From Alphaproteobacteria bacterium (GTDB lineage Bacteria; Pseudomonadota; Alphaproteobacteria; RF32; CAG-239), in contig JAWXUC010000004.1 of the NCBI GenBank assembly GCA_044432975.1, positions 30,291 to 94,290 on the forward strand: a stretch of 64,000 bases of DNA, read 5' to 3'. The position numbers and the translations under genes were made by a program. A model generated the notes under the pieces. That model saw only the letters and a list, made by a program, of their open reading frames with translations, was not told the DNA's origin and made no database searches. Of this stretch, positions 14,832 to 56,358 are shown in pieces. How positions within the stretch are numbered: position 1 is the first letter of the stretch; every line of letters starts with the position of its first letter.

Positions 14832-14859
14832 TTGCAATTTGTTTTAATTGATTTATATT
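14832..14859 (+). promoter_or_regulatory. Sigma-70-type promoter of structured RNA copy 1
   Basis: TTGCAA (14832-14837), 16-nt spacer, TATATT (14854-14859). Equivalent boxes lie at the same distance in the other two copies. Confidence 0.55.
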
Positions 14860-14866
14860 TGTTTTT

Positions 14867-15038
14867 AGTCGGGATGGCTCGGCGGAAATTATTGTGTATG
14901 GTGTCTGAAAAACACTTACATGGAACTTCACTGTTAAAGGTGGAGTGTTCGGATAGGGCTATATGCTTAAGAAGAACGGCTGCCATGTACAGTTTTTCAG
15001 CTCCACCACTGATTTTTATAATTCAGTGGTTTTGTTTT
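14867..15038 (+). ncRNA. Unclassified structured RNA / leader, copy 1 of 3
   Basis: Paralogue of 28792-28957(-) and 56151-56322(-). Helices P0, P1, P1b, P2 and P3 are kept by compensatory changes. Carries the invariant CAGTTTTTCAGCTCCACCACT and ends in CCACTGA..TCAGTGG + TTTTGTTTT. Confidence 0.75.
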
Positions 15039-15063
15039 AACTATAACAAAATGGAGTGAAAAA

Positions 15064-15282
15064 ATGAATTTTAATAAAACTATGAAAGAGCTTGGAAAGC
15101 AGGTTTTTGACTTAAGACAAGAGCAGGGGTTAAGCTTGCAAAAGTTATCAGGAATTTCTGGAATAAAGAAGAAAAAGTTAGAAAAACTAGAGTTGGGTTT
15201 GACTGAAATAGATATAGGTACAATTAAAAAAATAGCAAAATTTTATGGTGAAGATGCTAAAATAATTTTAGATAATCAATAG
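15064..15282 (+). CDS. Small Xre/Cro-type helix-turn-helix protein (72 aa)
   Basis: GGAG RBS; LSLQKLSGISGIKKKKLEKLELG HTH pattern; paralogue at 28545-28772. Confidence 0.75.
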   Translation: MNFNKTMKELGKQVFDLRQEQGLSLQKLSGISGIKKKKLEKLELGLTEIDIGTIKKIAKFYGEDAKIILDNQ

Positions 15283-15298: not shown

Positions 15299-15336
15299 AT
15301 ATTCTAGATTTCTAGAATTCTAGAAATCTAGAATAT
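15299..15336. repeat. Perfect 38-bp palindrome rich in CTAG
   Basis: ATATTCTAGATTTCTAGAA|TTCTAGAAATCTAGAATAT; a further half-site GAAATCTAGAATATA lies at 15341-15355. Confidence 0.9.
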
Positions 15337-15460
15337 GTGTGAAATCTAGAATATAAGTTGATTGAGTGTTTTTTTACCCCCTTTTGTTACTGGCGTGACA
15401 TTTTCCCCGCAAGGGGCAAATGATATAGCAAACGCAAAATTATTTGATTGCATATCTCTT

Positions 15461-16475: not shown

Positions 16476-18884
16476 ATGGAGAATAAAATGGTAGAGATTG
16501 ATGATAGATATAATCATAAGGCGATAGAGCAAAAGTGGCAAAAATATTTTGAAGATAACAAAACTTTTAAGGTGGAGTTAGATACATCTAAACCTAAATA
16601 TTATTGTTTGGTGGAGTTTCCGTTCCCATCTGGGGCTGGGTTGCACGTGGGGCATCCTCGTTCTTATACTGCACTTGATGTTATTGCTCGTAAAAAACGT
16701 ATGCAAGGTTTTAATGTGCTTTACCCAATGGGTTTTGATAGTTTTGGTTTGCCTGCAGAAAATTATGCAATTAAGACTGGTACTCACCCTGCAATTTCTA
16801 CAAAAGCAAATATTGAGAACTATAAACGTCAATTAAAAATGCTTGGTTTTTCTTTTGACTGGGACAGATGTGTTTCTACTTGTGACCCTGAATATTATGT
16901 GTGGACACAAAAAATGTTCTTGAAATTTTTAGAAAAAGGTTTGGCATATAAAAAGAAACAATCTATTAACTGGTGTACTTCTTGCAAAACTGGTTTGGCA
17001 AATGAAGAAATTGTTGGCGGAAAATGTGAACGTTGTGGCGGCGATGTTGTGCAAAAAGAAAAAACACAATGGATGTTGGCTATCACAAAATATGCAGACA
17101 GACTTATTGACGATTTAGAAACAGTAAACTTTTTAGACAGAGTAAAATCTGGTCAAACAAACTGGATTGGCAGATCTGAAGGTGCTGAATTAGATTTCAA
17201 ATTTGGCGATAATAAATTGACTGTGTTTACAACTCGTCCTGATACTGCGTTTGGTGTTACATATATGGTTCTTGCTCCAGAGCATCCTTTTGTTAAAGAA
17301 ATGAATTTTGAGAATCGCGGGGAAATTGATGCTTATGTTGAAGCTACAAGACACAAAACAGATTTAGAGCGTTCTATGGACACTAGCAAGACTGGTGTTG
17401 AATTAAAAGGTATTAAGGCAATAAATCCTTTTAATGGTGCAGAGATTCCAGTATTTATTTCTGATTATGTATTAATGGGTTATGGTACTGGTGCAATTAT
17501 GGCTGTACCTGCTCATGATCAACGCGACTGGGATTTTGCTAAAGCATTTAATTTGCCAATTATTCCTGTTTTGGCTGGTGGCGATATTGAAGAAAAAGCT
17601 CATGAAGAAGAGGGCGAACATATCAACTCTGATTTCTTAAATGGAATGATGAAAGAGGAAGCTATGACTAAGGCAACTGAGTTTGCAAAGGCTAACGGAT
17701 TTGGTCATACAAAAATAAATTACAAATTACGTGATTGGGTATTTTCTCGTCAACGTTATTGGGGAGAGCCTATTCCTGTGGTTCATTGTGATGATTGCGG
17801 AATCGTGCCATTACCAGAAGGTCAATTACCATTAAATCTTCCTGAAGTTACAGATTATTTGCCAAATGATGAAGGTGAATCTCCACTTTCTAAAGCAACA
17901 GACTGGGTAAATACTGTTTGTCCTAAATGTGGAAAACCAGCAAAACGCGAAACAGACACAATGCCAGGTTGGGCAGGGTCTTCTTGGTATTTCTTGCGTT
18001 ATATTGATCCACACAACAAAGATACATTTGCTTCTAAAGAAGCTCAAGATTATTGGATGAATGTTGACTTGTATAATGGCGGAATGGAACACGTTACACT
18101 TCACTTGTTGTACTCTCGTTTTTGGCATAAATTCTTGTATGATTGCGGAATGGTTACAACATCAGAGCCATATCAACGCCGTGTTGCTCATGGAATGATT
18201 TTGGGTGAAGATGGCGAAAAAATGTCTAAATCTCGTGGTAATGTTATTAACCCAGATGAAATTGTTGATACTTATGGTGCAGACGCATTCCGTTTGTATG
18301 AAATGTTTATTGGTCCGTTTGATCAAGTTGCTCCATGGTCTGATGAAAGTTTAAACGGTGTGTTCCGCTTTATTGCTAAAATTTGGGCAATGCACAGCAA
18401 GGTTGCAGATATTGAGCCAAGCAAAGATGATTTACACCAAATGCACAAAACAATTTTAGATGTTGTTGATAGAATAGATTTAATGAAATTTAACACAGCC
18501 GTTTCTAGCTTGATGACATTTGTTAATTATTTGGGTGGATTAAAAGAAGTTCCAAAAGTTTGTTTTGAAACTTTGGTTAAAATGCTTTCTCCATTTGCTC
18601 CACACGTAAGTGAAGAATTATGGCAAAAATTGGGACACACAGGTCTTGTTTGTCAAGCAGAGTTCCCTGTTGGAGATAAATCTTTAGCAACATCTGATAG
18701 CGTTACAATCGCTGTTCAAATCTGTGGCAAAATGCGTGGCACTGTTGAAGCTCCTGTTGATGCAGATGAAGAAACTGTTAAAGCATTAGCATTTGCATTA
18801 GATAACGTTAAAGCACAGACGGAAGGCAAAGAGATTAGGCGAATTATTTATGTTAAGAATAAAATTCTTAATGTGATAGTTTAA
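16476..18884 (+). CDS. leuS: Leucyl-tRNA synthetase
   Basis: HVGHPRSYT (HIGH) and KMSKSRGN (KMSKS) motifs and the CP1 editing region. Confidence 0.97.
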   Translation: MENKMVEIDDRYNHKAIEQKWQKYFEDNKTFKVELDTSKPKYYCLVEFPFPSGAGLHVGHPRSYTALDVIARKKRMQGFNVLYPMGFDSFGLPAENYAIKTGTHPAISTKANIENYKRQLKMLGFSFDWDRCVSTCDPEYYVWTQKMFLKFLEKGLAYKKKQSINWCTSCKTGLANEEIVGGKCERCGGDVVQKEKTQWMLAITKYADRLIDDLETVNFLDRVKSGQTNWIGRSEGAELDFKFGDNKLTVFTTRPDTAFGVTYMVLAPEHPFVKEMNFENRGEIDAYVEATRHKTDLERSMDTSKTGVELKGIKAINPFNGAEIPVFISDYVLMGYGTGAIMAVPAHDQRDWDFAKAFNLPIIPVLAGGDIEEKAHEEEGEHINSDFLNGMMKEEAMTKATEFAKANGFGHTKINYKLRDWVFSRQRYWGEPIPVVHCDDCGIVPLPEGQLPLNLPEVTDYLPNDEGESPLSKATDWVNTVCPKCGKPAKRETDTMPGWAGSSWYFLRYIDPHNKDTFASKEAQDYWMNVDLYNGGMEHVTLHLLYSRFWHKFLYDCGMVTTSEPYQRRVAHGMILGEDGEKMSKSRGNVINPDEIVDTYGADAFRLYEMFIGPFDQVAPWSDESLNGVFRFIAKIWAMHSKVADIEPSKDDLHQMHKTILDVVDRIDLMKFNTAVSSLMTFVNYLGGLKEVPKVCFETLVKMLSPFAPHVSEELWQKLGHTGLVCQAEFPVGDKSLATSDSVTIAVQICGKMRGTVEAPVDADEETVKALAFALDNVKAQTEGKEIRRIIYVKNKILNVIV

Positions 18885-19378
18885 TGGAAAGAAAATTAAA
18901 TAGGTTACAAAATTTTGACTATGCAACAAGCGTGGGGTATTTTATTACGATTTGTACGCAAGATAAAAAATGTTTGTTGAGTCAAATTGTAGGGACAGGG
19001 CTCTGCTCTGTCCAACATTTGCCAATAGGTAAATGTTTAGAAACTGAAATGCAAAATTTAGAAAATAAATATAATTTGAAGTTTGAAAAATATGTTATAA
19101 TGCCAAATCATATTCATATGATTGTAAGGCTTTGTAAAAGCCTTAGGACAGAGCAGAGCCCTGTCCCTACAATTTCTGATATAATTTGTGAGCTAAAATC
19201 TAAAGTAACAAAGCTTGCAAATAAAGAAGAGGGCATTGTTGGTAGAAAAATTTTTCAACGTTCTTTTTATGATAGAATAATACGTGATGATGAGTATCAG
19301 CCAATTGCTCAATATATCTTAGAAAATCCATATAATTGGCAAAAAGATGAATATTATAAAGGAGAAAAAAATGCTTGA
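18884..19378 (+). CDS. REP-associated tyrosine transposase (RAYT, IS200-like Y1 HUH family)
   Basis: FITICT.., HUH motif PNHIHMIV, C-terminal FQRSFYDRIIR..ENP. The start overlaps the leuS stop (TAATG). Confidence 0.85.
   Translation: MERKLNRLQNFDYATSVGYFITICTQDKKCLLSQIVGTGLCSVQHLPIGKCLETEMQNLENKYNLKFEKYVIMPNHIHMIVRLCKSLRTEQSPVPTISDIICELKSKVTKLANKEEGIVGRKIFQRSFYDRIIRDDEYQPIAQYILENPYNWQKDEYYKGEKNA
18986..19013 (+). repeat. REP arm embedded in the RAYT coding sequence
   Basis: ATTGTAGGGACAGGGCTCTGCTCTGTCC; its perfect reverse complement lies at 19146-19173. Confidence 0.9.
19146..19173 (-). repeat. Inverted REP arm embedded in the RAYT coding sequence
   Basis: GGACAGAGCAGAGCCCTGTCCCTACAAT, a 28/28 complement of 18986-19013. 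Confidence 0.9.
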
Positions 19379-20587: not shown

Positions 20588-20845
20588 GTTAAATAGGTTG
20601 CAAAATTTGGGTGATTTATGCCTAACGGCGGGACGCCGAGGGCGACGTCTCCTACAATTAGTGATTTAATTGGAACGTTAAAAAGATTTACAAATAAAAA
20701 AGTAGGGTTTAATATTTTCCAACGTTCTTTTTATTATAGAATAATATGTGATGATGAGTGTTTGCCAATTGCTCAATATATTTTAGAAAACCCATATCAT
20801 TGGCATAAAGATGAATATTACAAAGGAGATAAAAATGAGTTATAA
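20588..20845 (+). pseudogene. Internally deleted RAYT remnant
   Basis: Retains the N-terminal LNRLQN codons (GTTAAATAGGTTGCAAAATTT), then jumps to the C-terminal third (SPTISD..FQRSFYYRII..ENPYHWHKDEYYKG). The HUH motif is absent. Confidence 0.8.
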
Positions 20846-28498: not shown

Positions 28499-28538
28499 AA
28501 TTACGCATTACGTAGAACGTTCTACGTAATGCGTAATT
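28499..28538. repeat. Perfect 40-bp palindrome
   Basis: AATTACGCATTACGTAGAAC|GTTCTACGTAATGCGTAATT, 6 nt downstream of the Xre ORF stop. Confidence 0.9.
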
Positions 28539-28544
28539 TTTTAA

Positions 28545-28772
28545 TTAAATCTCTTTAGATTTAAGGATAATAGATATATCTTGATTATAATACTTTGCTA
28601 AGATTTTAATCATTCTAATATCTAAAACACCTTTGCCAAGTTCTGTTTTTTCTAATAAATCTTTATTGATTTTTACTTCTTTTGCAACAGTTGCTAATCT
28701 TTTAGATTTTTCTTGCCTGAGTTTGAAAATTTGCAAGCCAAATTCTTTTTTTATGTTTTTTATTTTCGTCAT
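28545..28772 (-). CDS. Small Xre/Cro-type helix-turn-helix protein (75 aa)
   Basis: Paralogue of 15064-15282 (KEFGLQIFKLRQE..LEKTELG..ILAKYY); the same GGAGTGAAAAAATG start context. Confidence 0.75.
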   Translation of the reverse strand: MTKIKNIKKEFGLQIFKLRQEKSKRLATVAKEVKINKDLLEKTELGKGVLDIRMIKILAKYYNQDISIILKSKEI

Positions 28773-28791: not shown

Positions 28792-28957
28792 AAAACAAAA
28801 CCACCTGATTTATATCAAGTGGTGGAGCTGAAAAACTGCCAAGACAGCTATCCTTATTTGGCATAGCCTTATTCGGACGCTCCACCTAGTGGTGAGCGTT
28901 TCTTGGTAGTGTTTTTCAAGCACCATACATAATAATATCAGCCAAGCAATCTTGACT
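28792..28957 (-). ncRNA. Unclassified structured RNA / leader, copy 2 of 3
   Basis: Same block order and helices as copy 1. Terminator CCACTTGAT..ATCAGGTGG + TTTTGTTTT on the minus strand. Confidence 0.75.
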
Positions 28958-28964
28958 GATATTT

Positions 28965-28993
28965 AATATATAAGAATCTTTTTTATTTGTAAA
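28965..28993 (-). promoter_or_regulatory. Sigma-70-type promoter of structured RNA copy 2
   Basis: Minus strand TTTACA (28993-28988), 17-nt spacer, TATATT (28970-28965). Starts 5 nt after the rph stop. Confidence 0.55.
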
Positions 28994-29716: not shown

Positions 29717-31006
<1,290 letters not shown>

Positions 31007-31752: not shown

Positions 31753-31829
31753 GGCGATCGTAGCTCAGTTGGTAGAGCCCCGGTTTGTGGTACCGGTTGT
31801 CGCGAGTTCGAGCCTCGTCGTTCGCCCCA
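31753..31829 (+). tRNA. tRNA-His (GTG) with encoded G-1 and CCA
   Basis: The cloverleaf folds by hand: G-1, acceptor GCGATCG/CGTTCGC (one T-T mismatch), D arm GCTC..GAGC, anticodon stem CCGGT/ACCGG with loop TTGTGGT, T arm GCGAG-TTCGAGC-CTCGT, discriminator C, CCA. Confidence 0.92.
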
Positions 31830-34849: not shown

Positions 34850-35049
34850 CTTGTTGTTGGATAGGTTGATTACCTATCTGAGGTGTCGAAACCTCTTTAA
34901 GCACGTCTTGAAAGACGTTAAATTTTACATACTTTCTAGTCTATGACTGGAAGGTGGTAAAATAAAGCCCTTGCGGTTGAATATACCGCACTATTTTGCT
35001 TAAATAGTTTCGAACTTCCAGTCGCCCCTCATCATGGCGATATTTTTTT
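34850..35049 (+). ncRNA. Candidate structured RNA or 5' leader upstream of the OMP gene
   Basis: Hairpins at 34860-34878, 34880-34895 and 34903-34918. A 9-bp long-range stem GACTGGAAG/CTTCCAGTC (34945-34953 / 35015-35023) encloses two hairpins. GC hairpin TCGCC..GGCGA + T-run ends at 35049, 25 nt before the ATG. Confidence 0.4.
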
Positions 35050-35073: not shown

Positions 35074-35619
35074 ATGAAAAAAACTTTATTACTTGCAGGC
35101 GTTGCTTGCGTTTTATCTTTTAACTCTAATGCTTCTGAAATCAAACCTTATGTTGGTTTAGATGTCGGAGTGGTTAGTGCAGATTTAGCTAATGGCTATG
35201 ATTTAATTGCAGAAGATAGTTTATATACATATTCAGTTAATGCAGGTGCAAAAATTAATGATAATTTTGGTTTAGAGGCTTTTTATCAAACTTCTTCTGA
35301 AGAAGATAAAACAATTGGCGCACTGACAACAACCACAAGTTTTGATGCTTATGGCCTAGACGTTATTGGATATTTACCAATAACAGAAAAAACAAATTTA
35401 TTAGGTTCTGTTGGTTTAGCTCAATATGACTTTGAGTTAAAAGCAACAGGGCTTGCAACAGAAAGCGAAGATGGCTTAGGTTGTCGTTTTGCTGTTGGTG
35501 CTGATTATAACTTAACAGATAATGTTTCTTTTAGAGCAATGGCTCGTTATGTTACTTTAGATACTGATAATGTTGATAGTCTAACAGAATTTTCTGTTGG
35601 TGCTAGATATTCTTTCTAG
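35074..35619 (+). CDS. Small outer-membrane beta-barrel protein (OmpA-like barrel/porin family)
   Basis: Signal peptide, alternating beta-strand pattern, C-terminal ...GARYSF. Confidence 0.8.
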   Translation: MKKTLLLAGVACVLSFNSNASEIKPYVGLDVGVVSADLANGYDLIAEDSLYTYSVNAGAKINDNFGLEAFYQTSSEEDKTIGALTTTTSFDAYGLDVIGYLPITEKTNLLGSVGLAQYDFELKATGLATESEDGLGCRFAVGADYNLTDNVSFRAMARYVTLDTDNVDSLTEFSVGARYSF

Positions 35620-55866: not shown

Positions 55867-56127
55867 TTATTTTTTGTTAATGATGTTATAAAATTTGTTT
55901 AAGCAATTATAAATATCTTTTGCGGTTAAATATATGGTGTATCCTATTATGTTTAGAGATAATTTGTCGTCTTTTGTTTCTGTTAAAGGTTCTTTAAAAA
56001 ATTCTTCAAGCTCTATTATTGCCTTTTGCTTTCTTTGGGATGTTGTTAATAGTTCTTTTTTTTCATCATTATAAGAGTGATATAGATAAATTAAGTTTTC
56101 CATTAATCTTTTTTCTTCTTTGCTCAT
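55867..56127 (-). CDS. Small hypothetical protein (86 aa) downstream of RNA copy 3
   Basis: ORF starts 24 nt after the RNA terminator T-run. Not similar to the Xre proteins of copies 1 and 2. Confidence 0.5.
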   Translation of the reverse strand: MSKEEKRLMENLIYLYHSYNDEKKELLTTSQRKQKAIIELEEFFKEPLTETKDDKLSLNIIGYTIYLTAKDIYNCLNKFYNIINKK

Positions 56128-56150: not shown

Positions 56151-56322
56151 AAAAAAAATCACCACCACTAAAAAAGTGGTGGAGCTGAAAAACTGCCGCA
56201 TGTCAGCCACTCTAATTCGAGCATAGCCTTATATCGAGCACTCCACCGAAGTGGGTGACTCATACGGATAAAACGTTTTTCAGGCGTTATACATAATAAT
56301 ATTAGCCAAGCCTATCTTGACT
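56151..56322 (-). ncRNA. Unclassified structured RNA / leader, copy 3 of 3
   Basis: Same blocks and helices as copies 1 and 2. P2 is capped by a TTCG loop. Terminator CCACCACT-TTTTT-AGTGGTGG then TGATTTTTTTT on the minus strand. Confidence 0.75.
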
Positions 56323-56330
56323 ATGCTTTT

Positions 56331-56358
56331 ACTATATAGCTCATTTCTGTTTTGTAAA
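56331..56358 (-). promoter_or_regulatory. Sigma-70-type promoter of structured RNA copy 3
   Basis: Minus strand TTTACA (56358-56353), 16-nt spacer, TATAGT (56336-56331). Confidence 0.5.

Follow-up and report, generated by a model that had tools for sequence, protein, structure and literature searches.

In the add adenine riboswitch the 3′ strand of the P1 helix can pair with the ribosome-binding region, and the closed form of P1 is the state in which translation is ON. The described RNA that comes closest to the subject of this report is sRNA-Xcc1 (Rfam RF02221), found in Xanthomonas as a discrete RNA of 88 nucleotides (nt) with mapped ends (PMC2996969). Reports place it in integron cassettes, where symE follows it (10.1101/2025.06.18.660453), in APSE phages, where the gene behind it is of the ORF6N type (10.1101/2020.03.17.996009), and, in five tandem copies, in a Xylella island (PMC12189769); those papers among the ones consulted that discuss its role treat it as a trans-acting or virulence-associated small RNA (sRNA). 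For one Aeromonas copy we could confirm the ORF6N gene behind it. A survey of human gut metagenomes reports, moreover, that the domain most often encoded right behind candidate structures in 5′ untranslated regions (5′ UTRs) is HTH_XRE (Fremin and Bhatt 2021, PMC8040213). Here we describe an RNA family with three copies, and a fourth, divergent relative, in a 64,000-nt stretch of an Alphaproteobacteria bacterium (GTDB RF32; CAG-239; assembly GCA_044432975.1, contig JAWXUC010000004.1, forward-strand positions 30,291 to 94,290), referred to below as the window. The reading we favour, with a confidence that falls somewhat short of even, is that each copy forms the 5′ leader of a single-gene unit and acts in cis as a riboswitch-like conformational switch, for which a closed three-way junction is the ON state.

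The window holds three paralogous non-coding segments of ~170 nt, each with a common 21-mer and a common fold: copy 1 at 14867–15038 on the forward strand, and copies 2 and 3 at 28792–28962 and 56151–56324 on the reverse strand. The 21-mer (CAGTTTTTCAGCTCCACCACT) does not differ between them; a 20-mer (CAGTTTTTCAGCTCCACCAC) occurs exactly three times, against 0.01 occurrences expected from shuffles; and from promoter to start codon the three-way alignment has a mean column identity of 79%. R1, a full-length covariance model built from 50 distinct copies, makes exactly three strong matches in the window (66–75 bits; 72.2 bits on 14864–15009 for copy 1, 75.2 for copy 2 and 66.4 for copy 3), the opposite strand scoring at most 15 bits. 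Single-sequence folding recovers helices P0, P1, P1b, P2 and P3 in each copy, with z-scores of −3.7, −6.8 and −3.6 for copies 1, 2 and 3 and none of 200 shuffles as stable. Working from the 5′ end, we see a P0 hairpin, a 14-nt single strand, the long-range helix P1 (CUGAAAAAC:GUUUUUCAG; CUGUUUUAC denotes an altered version of its 5′ strand) and P1b, which extends P1 as far as the three-way junction from which P2 and P3 branch; a hairpin and U-run then follow.

In copy 1, P0 (GTCGGG ATGG CTCGGC, 14868–14883; seen in the single-sequence fold and in family covariation) is followed by the 5′ strand GGTG-T-CTGAAAAAC (14900–14913), which comprises the P1 extension and P1 and has its partner at 14992–15007. 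Segment b (GGTGGAG, 14939–14945) is the 3′ arm of P2 and finds an alternative partner, in an sRNA-Xcc1-like fold, in segment c (CTCCACC, 15001–15007); the invariant 21-mer (14990–15010) runs together the 3′ strand of P1, segment c and the first bases of the terminator. The terminator hairpin, CCACTGA...TCAGTGG with TTTTGTTTT, folds at 15006–15038, and beyond it an A-tract complementary to the U-tract, the Shine–Dalgarno (SD) motif GGAG and the start codon (15045–15066) mimic the 5′ strand and can pair with 14990–15004 at −12.7 kcal/mol. On the reverse strand, the 21-mer lies at 28818–28838 in copy 2 and 56175–56195 in copy 3, and the terminator at 28800–28823 and 56162–56182, with a U-tract in copy 2 and a T-run in copy 3 as further parts of the leader. 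Promoter-like boxes precede all three copies: TTGCAA-16 nt-TATATT at 14832–14859 (9/12 matches), TTTACA-17 nt-TATATT at 28965–28993 and TTTACA-16 nt-TATAGT at 56331–56358 (each 10/12, reverse strand). The −10 box of copy 1 ends 7 nt before AGTC, a position that agrees with the TACAAT/TATAAT box found 7–8 nt before P0 in homologues from metagenome-assembled genomes (MAGs). A terminator-like hairpin was called by the scan in copies 2 and 3, that of copy 1 being recognised by eye and by folding, and in each case the start codon of the next open reading frame (ORF) lies 19–25 nt past the end of hairpin and T-run. The preliminary description of this DNA, which had proposed three paralogues at these places and on these strands, the same five helices, transcription of the ORF-sense strand, and a promoter and terminator belonging to each copy, is borne out on all these counts. 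The shared sequence blocks that it listed are present too; copy 2, however, reads TTGAAAAAC and its outermost P1 pair is U·G, such that P1 is not alike in all three as had been stated.

Covariation was counted over 50 copies in a MAFFT alignment that was not fitted to structure. Paired cells amount to 95.3%, as against 38–48% when the 3′ partners are slid, and cells with a double change number 231 as against 72 ± 7 in shuffles; compensatory changes, found by RNAalifold as well, affect every pair of P1b, P3 and P3a and seven of the eight pairs of P0. Such changes in additional homologues, a check proposed at the outset, are seen across 50–64 sequences. Frequent G·U pairs, which would be A-C on the other strand, fix the strand that is transcribed. 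Inside the main family no variation is seen in P1, in its extension by four pairs (GGUG:CACC) or in most of P2, and the loop GAUAUAAG/CGAAUAAG, common to both of the folds described here and to sRNA-Xcc1, is strongly conserved. We rejected a protein-coding reading of the element; the one ORF that spans a copy, of 80 amino acids (aa) and in copy 1, lacks conservation, and substitutions compensate one another instead of following codons.

The window-type copies also carry a 14-nt single-stranded insert, AUAUUAUURUGUAU, at 14886–14899, 28925–28936 and 56289–56302, and have P0 loops that are non-GNRA; in MAG copies P0 has a GAGA tetraloop and the insert is absent. It is possible, judging from these three sequences, that UUAUU of the insert pairs with AAUAA of the P3 loop, a swap of tertiary contacts.

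To the single fold of the preliminary description we add a second, predicted to be conserved and mutually exclusive with the first. In a permissive Rfam scan the 3′ domain of the MAG copy L077 aligns with RF02221 full-length and in register at 26.7 bits (gathering score 53), and the outer helix of this alignment is formed by GGUGGAG (b, the 3′ arm of P2) and CUCCACC (c). Taken alone the match is weak, found in only 1 of 12 MAG loci and well under the 69–72 bits of true members; the Rfam model gives no Xcc1 match for the three reported copies (copy 1 at E up to 10), and R1, the full-length model, finds no true Xcc1. For this reason we built R2, a covariance model of the 3′ domain in the Xcc1-like fold, which matches three of three true Xcc1 tested, in register, at 13–14 bits (E 0.03–0.06) with the next unrelated sequence at 8 bits, scores comparable to these arising about once per 128 kb of window. 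The Xcc1-type architecture itself (an outer helix round two hairpins, the first with an AUAYAA/GAAUAA internal loop) is present, and forms once b:c is enforced. When the main type, the fourth element of the window and the type represented by L060:1254 are compared, compensatory changes between subfamilies appear in every helix of the junction fold (P1, P1b and a:b, which is P2) and of the Xcc1-like fold (b:c and H2). Two exclusive folds that are both kept by compensation are the signature of a switch, and the pattern of substitution suggests that selection has evidently kept both.

The fourth element (34858–35049, forward strand) escaped the preliminary description, whose three copies in 64 kb are confirmed. 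It has the same design, and is the best sRNA-Xcc1 look-alike of the window: 32.3 bits with the Rfam model (gathering score 53), 17 bits with R2 (34946–35022) and 13.8 bits with R1, a rank just under the true copies. After P0, GAGG+UCGAAAC (P1 5′ strand, at 34886) pairs with GUUUCGA+CUUC (P1 3′ strand, GTTTCGA in the DNA, at 35007); P1b, read by eye, is UUUAAGC:GCUUAAA. Segments a, b and c are, as DNA, TTTCTAGTC (34933), GACTGGAAG (34945) and CTTCCAGTC (35015) and, as RNA, UUUCUAGUC, GACUGGAAG and CUUCCAGUC, the last three bases of c being overlapped by a weak terminator with T-run (35021–35049).

R2 brought out more divergent relatives in MAG loci L012, L087 and L060, with double compensatory changes in b:c throughout. 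At L087:1325–1399 this helix is GGAGGAG:CUCCUCC; at L060:1254–1327, identical to L068:6974–7047, it is CGGAUGU:ACAUCCG, alongside a P1 of UUAGAAAACC:GGUUUUCUAA and a P1b of ACGUACAG:CUGUACGU. The element at L012:1182–1256 (b:c, UGGGGAG:CUCCCCA) consists of the core only, with neither 5′ domain nor P1 5′ strand, and looks like a natural minimal form between the gut family and sRNA-Xcc1; this core encloses P3 and ACUG/CAGU, with a plain hairpin upstream and a terminator after it. In a Neisseria gonorrhoeae record, a bona fide sRNA-Xcc1 is followed, ~150 nt on, by another element of Xcc1-like type that is degenerate (L129:1712–1770; 20.8 bits with R2).

The invariant 3′ strand has a further partner outside the core. 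The SD and spacer of the partner genes (GGAGUUGAAAU, GGAGUUUGAAAA, GGAGCUAAAAAG, UGGAGUGAAAAAA and others) resemble the 5′ strand GGUGUCUGAAAAAC and are therefore complementary to GUUUUUCAGCUCC. The duplex between translation-initiation region and invariant strand has a median energy of −14.0 kcal/mol, other genes with an SD in these loci coming to −7.1, and all 13 of the 13 distinct types of ribosome-binding site come to −11 kcal/mol or below, a value reached by 10–15% of the background. For the L060:1254 type, the site GGAUGUUAA fits its own strand UUCUAACAUCC at −13.7 kcal/mol and the main-family strand at −4.8; the predicted helix between strand and ribosome-binding site covaries across subfamilies. 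Because of this complementarity we regard the element as a cis-acting leader and not as a free-standing or selfish RNA, keeping the regulatory half of the earlier ‘regulatory or selfish module’ and giving up the other.

Folding of whole leaders yields two near-iso-energetic states, one with P1 closed and one with P1 open and its 3′ strand on the ribosome-binding site; the helix of the open state encloses the terminator hairpin and a conserved hairpin of U-tract and A-tract. The two differ by a median of 2.9 kcal/mol, and blocking P1 sends the strand to a downstream partner in 55 of 61 copies. Two states so close in energy, together with the six A-U pairs among the nine of P1 and the gut-associated hosts, would also suit an RNA thermometer or other physical sensor, in which access to the ribosome-binding site depends on P1 melting or forming with temperature or ion concentration. 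The thermometers that are known are simple hairpins, however, no Rfam thermometer family matches, and a multi-helix junction with invariant junction nucleotides and a second conserved fold makes this idea very improbable.

The conserved strand also reaches into the terminator: of 59 distinct tails, 36 have the first base of the 5′ arm at the A of CUCC-ACC, which sets the three lowest pairs of the hairpin in competition with the P1 extension. Two variations of this region are worth recording. Between terminator and ribosome-binding site, L020:1466–1560 and many other MAG copies (among them L006, L054, L062, L086, L103, L115 and L125) have a conserved insert of ~75 nt with three small hairpins (caagctggtggcagcttg / caaacacggcgtgtttg / gacggcaaaagttgtc). 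The terminator hairpins of L016, L036, L057 and L077, for their part, hold a second copy of the P1 3′ strand (GUUUUUCAGCUC), which could, by its sequence, likewise bind either the 5′ strand of P1 or the ribosome-binding site.

In the mechanism that we propose, transcription would start at the P0 hairpin and the junction fold would then be assembled from P1 with its GGUG:CACC extension, P1b, P2 and P3. The strand GUUUUUCAG-CUCCACC would have the choice of four partners, each excluding the others: the 5′ strand, giving the closed junction; GGUGGAG (b), giving the sRNA-Xcc1-like fold; the 3′ arm of the terminator, whose bottom two to five pairs would use the ACC of CUCCACC; and the downstream ribosome-binding region, the mimic of the 5′ strand. 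A ligand or factor that stabilises P1 and its extension would lock the 3′ strand, and thereby block the base of the terminator and leave the ribosome-binding site free (ON). Failing such stabilisation, the terminator would complete to give a short RNA of ~170 nt, and in transcripts that read through, the 3′ strand would pair with the ribosome-binding site (OFF). The helices, their exclusivity, the complementarities and the closeness in energy are direct results of the comparison; that the RNA acts in cis, which way the switch works and that it has a trigger are what we infer from them.

Several points weigh against this reading. Covariation support for P1 is within reach only through a few divergent sequences compared across subfamilies, P1 being invariant inside the main family. 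Copy 3 lacks the GGUG extension, and that of the fourth element is paired with bases of c that take no part in the terminator; only b, therefore, competes with the terminator in every variant, which leaves the polarity unsettled. Minimum-energy folds often pair the SD in the closed state as well, so that exposure of the SD is not demonstrated, and some copies have a poor U-tract. Besides, it is from sequence and not from transcripts that promoter, terminator and read-through are all deduced. Finally, we find no metabolic theme among the downstream genes (XRE regulators, outer-membrane β-barrels, a Cys-rich secreted protein, small ORFs), and hence no clue to a ligand.

These points bear most directly on the sign of the switch. 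With the polarity reversed, the same cis switch would have the junction fold as its default, c joining the terminator to give OFF and the short RNA, and b:c would serve as the antiterminator (ON) while keeping the anti-RBS (ribosome-binding site) stretch CUCC occupied; the balance would be tipped towards the Xcc1-like core by a ligand, by a protein or by loss of the 5′ domain. We consider this scheme unlikely, if still a serious contender. It draws on the overlap of b:c with the terminator 5′ arm, by 3 nt in the main family, 5 nt in copy 3, 3 nt in the fourth element and 2 nt in L087:1325, variants in not all of which the GGUG extension overlaps that arm; on the mimicry of c by a in each 5′-extended variant (UCCAC vs CUCCAC; UUUCUAGUC vs CUUCCAGUC); on the double compensatory changes in b:c given above; and on the core standing alone, without a 5′ domain, in L012:1182–1256 and true sRNA-Xcc1. 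The minimum-energy fold of leader plus terminator is, moreover, junction plus terminator. Set against this, the Xcc1-like fold of the main family is less stable than the junction fold by 6–10 kcal/mol and is disfavoured during transcription, as all the junction helices can form earlier; b:c of the L060:1254 type hardly touches the terminator; and the 88-nt Xanthomonas RNA seems to have its own 3′ end in the corresponding outer helix (PMC2996969).

That discrete Xanthomonas RNA is also what lends weight to a different proposal, a free-standing gene for a trans-acting sRNA that ends at its own terminator, the ORF being a mere neighbour or else regulated in trans by pooled short RNAs. Each copy does have a putative promoter of its own and a predicted terminator right behind the structured part, and with the same anti-RBS strand in all copies and matching ribosome-binding sites in all partners, cross-talk in trans is conceivable. 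In the window copies and many homologues, however, the gap from terminator to SD is 19–30 nt, leaving no room for a separate ORF promoter, a constraint that holds for most of the ORFs; promoter scans of the three copies returned a leader-internal promoter-like match in copy 1 only. RNA and ORF are, in addition, duplicated and conserved as a unit, in fixed orientation and 19–120 nt apart, in more than 60 cases, and the anti-RBS strand of the short RNA would be buried in P1. We therefore think a trans-acting sRNA improbable. The match inside copy 1 (TTTTCA-17 nt-TATAAT, 10/12, 14994–15022) is not conserved in copies 2 and 3.

The gene downstream, in ~50 of 55 cases, encodes an XRE-type helix-turn-helix (HTH) protein of 72–93 aa whose start lies 45–120 nt past the conserved strand. 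ORF1 (15064–15282, forward; 72 aa) is of this kind, with HTH_3 at 33.1 bits (cutoff 23), and most MAG partners likewise have an HTH_3-type Pfam domain above cutoff; no homologue of ORF1 was detectable in the protein database. ORF2 (28545–28772, reverse; 75 aa) is divergent, falling under the cutoffs of the Pfam HTH families yet aligning with the HTH proteins. ORF3 (55867–56127, reverse; 86 aa) is unrelated to them and has no domain recognisable by Pfam, PHROG or profile comparison; that it might be a hidden HTH protein was rejected (profile-comparison probability 0.2%). A small ORF thus follows each time, as had been claimed, of the tiny XRE type for copies 1 and 2 and most homologues and of another type for copy 3. 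Further partners outside the HTH class are a Cys-rich secreted protein (L059, L107) and a 58-aa ORF (L010), and outer-membrane β-barrel genes stand behind the L060:1254-type element and behind the fourth element (35074–35619, forward; PF13505, 78 bits). Given so varied a set of genes, a portable cis-regulator fits better than a protein-specific partner.

The tight association of the RNA with one family of tiny HTH proteins, many of them with basic N-termini, could nevertheless point to a protein-binding leader, on which the XRE protein (as feedback) or another RNA-binding protein occupies the P3 internal loop or P0, with no small-molecule ligand involved; the strong conservation of GAUAUAAG/CGAAUAAG in both folds and in sRNA-Xcc1 would suit this. 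We hold it to be quite improbable, since the same RNA precedes genes for outer-membrane proteins, a secreted protein and unrelated small ORFs, since the HTH partners are only 18–42% identical to ORF1 while the RNA core is invariant, and since XRE domains bind DNA; the solved proteins nearest to these partners are generic ones, namely C proteins, DdrO, HipB and SinR.

Every module comprises one gene and is flanked by housekeeping genes unrelated to it: lysA/leuS, rph/lptE and ruvB/plsY in the window, LepA/TolB in MAGs. Paralogues resemble one another between the −35 box and the stop codon of the ORF and not beyond, and no transposase, integrase or terminal repeats lie next to the copies; for these reasons we reject the view that they are ends or remnants of a mobile element (insertion sequence (IS), miniature inverted-repeat transposable element, integron cassette or prophage) conserved for transposition and not as RNA, in keeping with the check on IS and prophage ends that the preliminary description had named. 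Their multi-copy nature, and the sRNA-Xcc1 relatives in integron cassettes and prophages, would speak for such an origin; with substitutions that are RNA-type and strand-specific (G·U), and with viral, plasmid and phage collections devoid of true matches, it is scarcely credible.

The family extends well beyond the window. One genome per species was scanned from GTDB, with the 20-mer first and then with a gapped pattern; the strict pattern gave 60 loci, all of them from uncultured gut or rumen Alphaproteobacteria, with hosts that include ‘Proteobacteria bacterium CAG:495’, ‘uncultured Azospirillum sp.’ and Azospirillaceae, among HGM, MGYG, Hadza, BRZ and water-deer MAGs. By R1 there are 64 copies in total, in ~25 MAG species and at 1–7 per genome. 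Proteins of the window share 36–78% identity with those of the host MAGs, and the modules of window and MAGs stand at different sites, conserved synteny having been looked for and not found. Plasmid and phage collections contained no DNA match, and JGI metagenome contigs and viral contigs no true match; a lone viral pattern match was rejected as chance because it lacks the conserved GCTCC tail and its surroundings are unrelated. A pattern for the 14-nt insert gave one chance match in genomes and none in metagenomes, where a broader pattern also gave none.

None of the 4227 families of Rfam 15, which include riboswitches, T-box, thermometers, ribozymes, 6S, tmRNA, SRP and RNase P, matches the element at or above its gathering threshold; across the window and 13 loci only tRNAs and the true Xcc1 controls do so, and permissive scans add chance-level matches only, sRNA-Xcc1 excepted. 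Nor did we find a description of the motif in the literature on XRE and riboswitch candidates, in a 50-genome survey of non-coding RNA or in the 200 of 408 files covered of a human-microbiome catalogue. On these searches the RNA family is previously undescribed and occurs only in uncultured gut alphaproteobacteria. The earlier failure to place it in any known family is upheld at gathering thresholds, and is qualified by the 3′ domain, a twilight-zone relative of sRNA-Xcc1.

The window is otherwise ordinary chromosome of ~32% G+C, with atp genes, lysA, leuS, lptE, holA, rph, eno, gyrB, ruvB and plsY. A tRNA-His (GTG) gene at 31754–31829 is its sole Rfam family at gathering threshold. Its sole Y1 transposase gene (18884–19378; IS200-like, PF01797) comes right after leuS, ~3.6 kb past the ORF1 stop at 15282; 1.2 kb downstream, a 75-aa ORF (20618–20845) repeats the C-terminal 40 residues of the Y1 protein and looks like a decayed second copy. 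The TCTAGA core is found five times right after the ORF1 stop, at 15303–15350, four of the cores repeating every 8 nt exactly (TCTAGAWT) and the fifth standing 18 nt beyond them; the HTH protein may have an array of operators here, or the region may be a terminator of unusual form. ORF2 is followed at 28499–28538 by a perfect 40-nt palindrome (AATTACGCATTACGTAGAACGTTCTACGTAATGCGTAATT), called by the scan as a terminator-like hairpin and listed on the forward strand.

The regulated genes encode mostly minimal XRE DNA-binding domains that have no sensor domain, and the leader may therefore be the point at which the signal enters. The family is a new structured RNA from an uncultured, human-associated lineage, with an alignment deep enough for experimental design, and a rare case in which two exclusive folds are both backed by compensatory changes, hence a natural model for RNA switching. 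More speculatively, and with doubts that we do not conceal, the common core (outer helix, AUAYAA/GAAUAA hairpin and second hairpin) might be the ligand-binding aptamer of a new riboswitch class, of which sRNA-Xcc1 would be the minimal form and to which the gut version would add a 5′ anti-core domain; the resulting pair of conserved three-way-junction folds, each excluding the other, would then stand in for the sensor that a whole family of XRE regulators lacks, and would serve surface proteins too. The link between the two RNAs also offers a testable new view of sRNA-Xcc1, a widespread ‘orphan sRNA’ known from integrons and prophages: it may act in cis, as a leader for the gene that follows.

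How, then, does the gut family compare with the systems from which we set out? It shows what riboswitches generally show: a covarying structured domain in the 5′ UTR and, in silico, mutually exclusive structures in the expression platform. As in three-way-junction riboswitches such as add (purine family, RF00167), P1 closes the junction, its 3′ strand has the ribosome-binding site as an alternative, and the system is bistable and near-iso-energetic; unlike them, it has no similarity to that family in sequence or by covariance model, its P1 is invariant in the main family, and it possesses an extra 5′ hairpin, a conserved alternative fold and a terminator placed between aptamer and ribosome-binding site. 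With four-segment attenuators (trp-type) and terminator/antiterminator riboswitch platforms (the ZTP and fluoride ON switches) it shares an exclusive chain, a:b, b:c and c:terminator arm, and an overlap of a few nucleotides at the base of the terminator by the U-tract, but it has no conserved leader peptide, its strand a lies inside a larger covarying junction, and its strand c also targets the ribosome-binding site. The gut-metagenome candidates come from the same habitat and precede the same class of gene; in the 200 of the 408 supplementary files that were covered, no entry has the motif or the taxon, and the largest XRE-associated entry is from Veillonella (PMC8040213).

It is sRNA-Xcc1 to which the likeness is closest. 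By score, context and extra domain the gut family stands outside RF02221: it is below the 53-bit gathering score everywhere; it is chromosomal, among housekeeping genes, where Xcc1 sits in integrons, prophages and genomic islands; and it adds a 5′ domain of ~80 nt (P0, the 5′ strands of P1 and P1b, and the 5′ arm of P2), able to refold the core, as well as a separate terminator hairpin. The core architecture is nonetheless common to the two, and intermediates connect them. The 3′ two-thirds of the gut family keep the same plan element by element: an outer helix that ends GGAG and starts CUCC, a first hairpin with the AUAYAA/GAAUAA loop, and a second hairpin followed by a U-rich joining strand, GUUUYNAR, before the closing strand; and both RNAs are multi-copy, lying just upstream of, and in the same orientation as, genes that encode small DNA-binding proteins (symE and ORF6N in the case of Xcc1). 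Taken together, these comparisons suggest a new family that is a 5′-extended and very distant, twilight-zone relative of sRNA-Xcc1.

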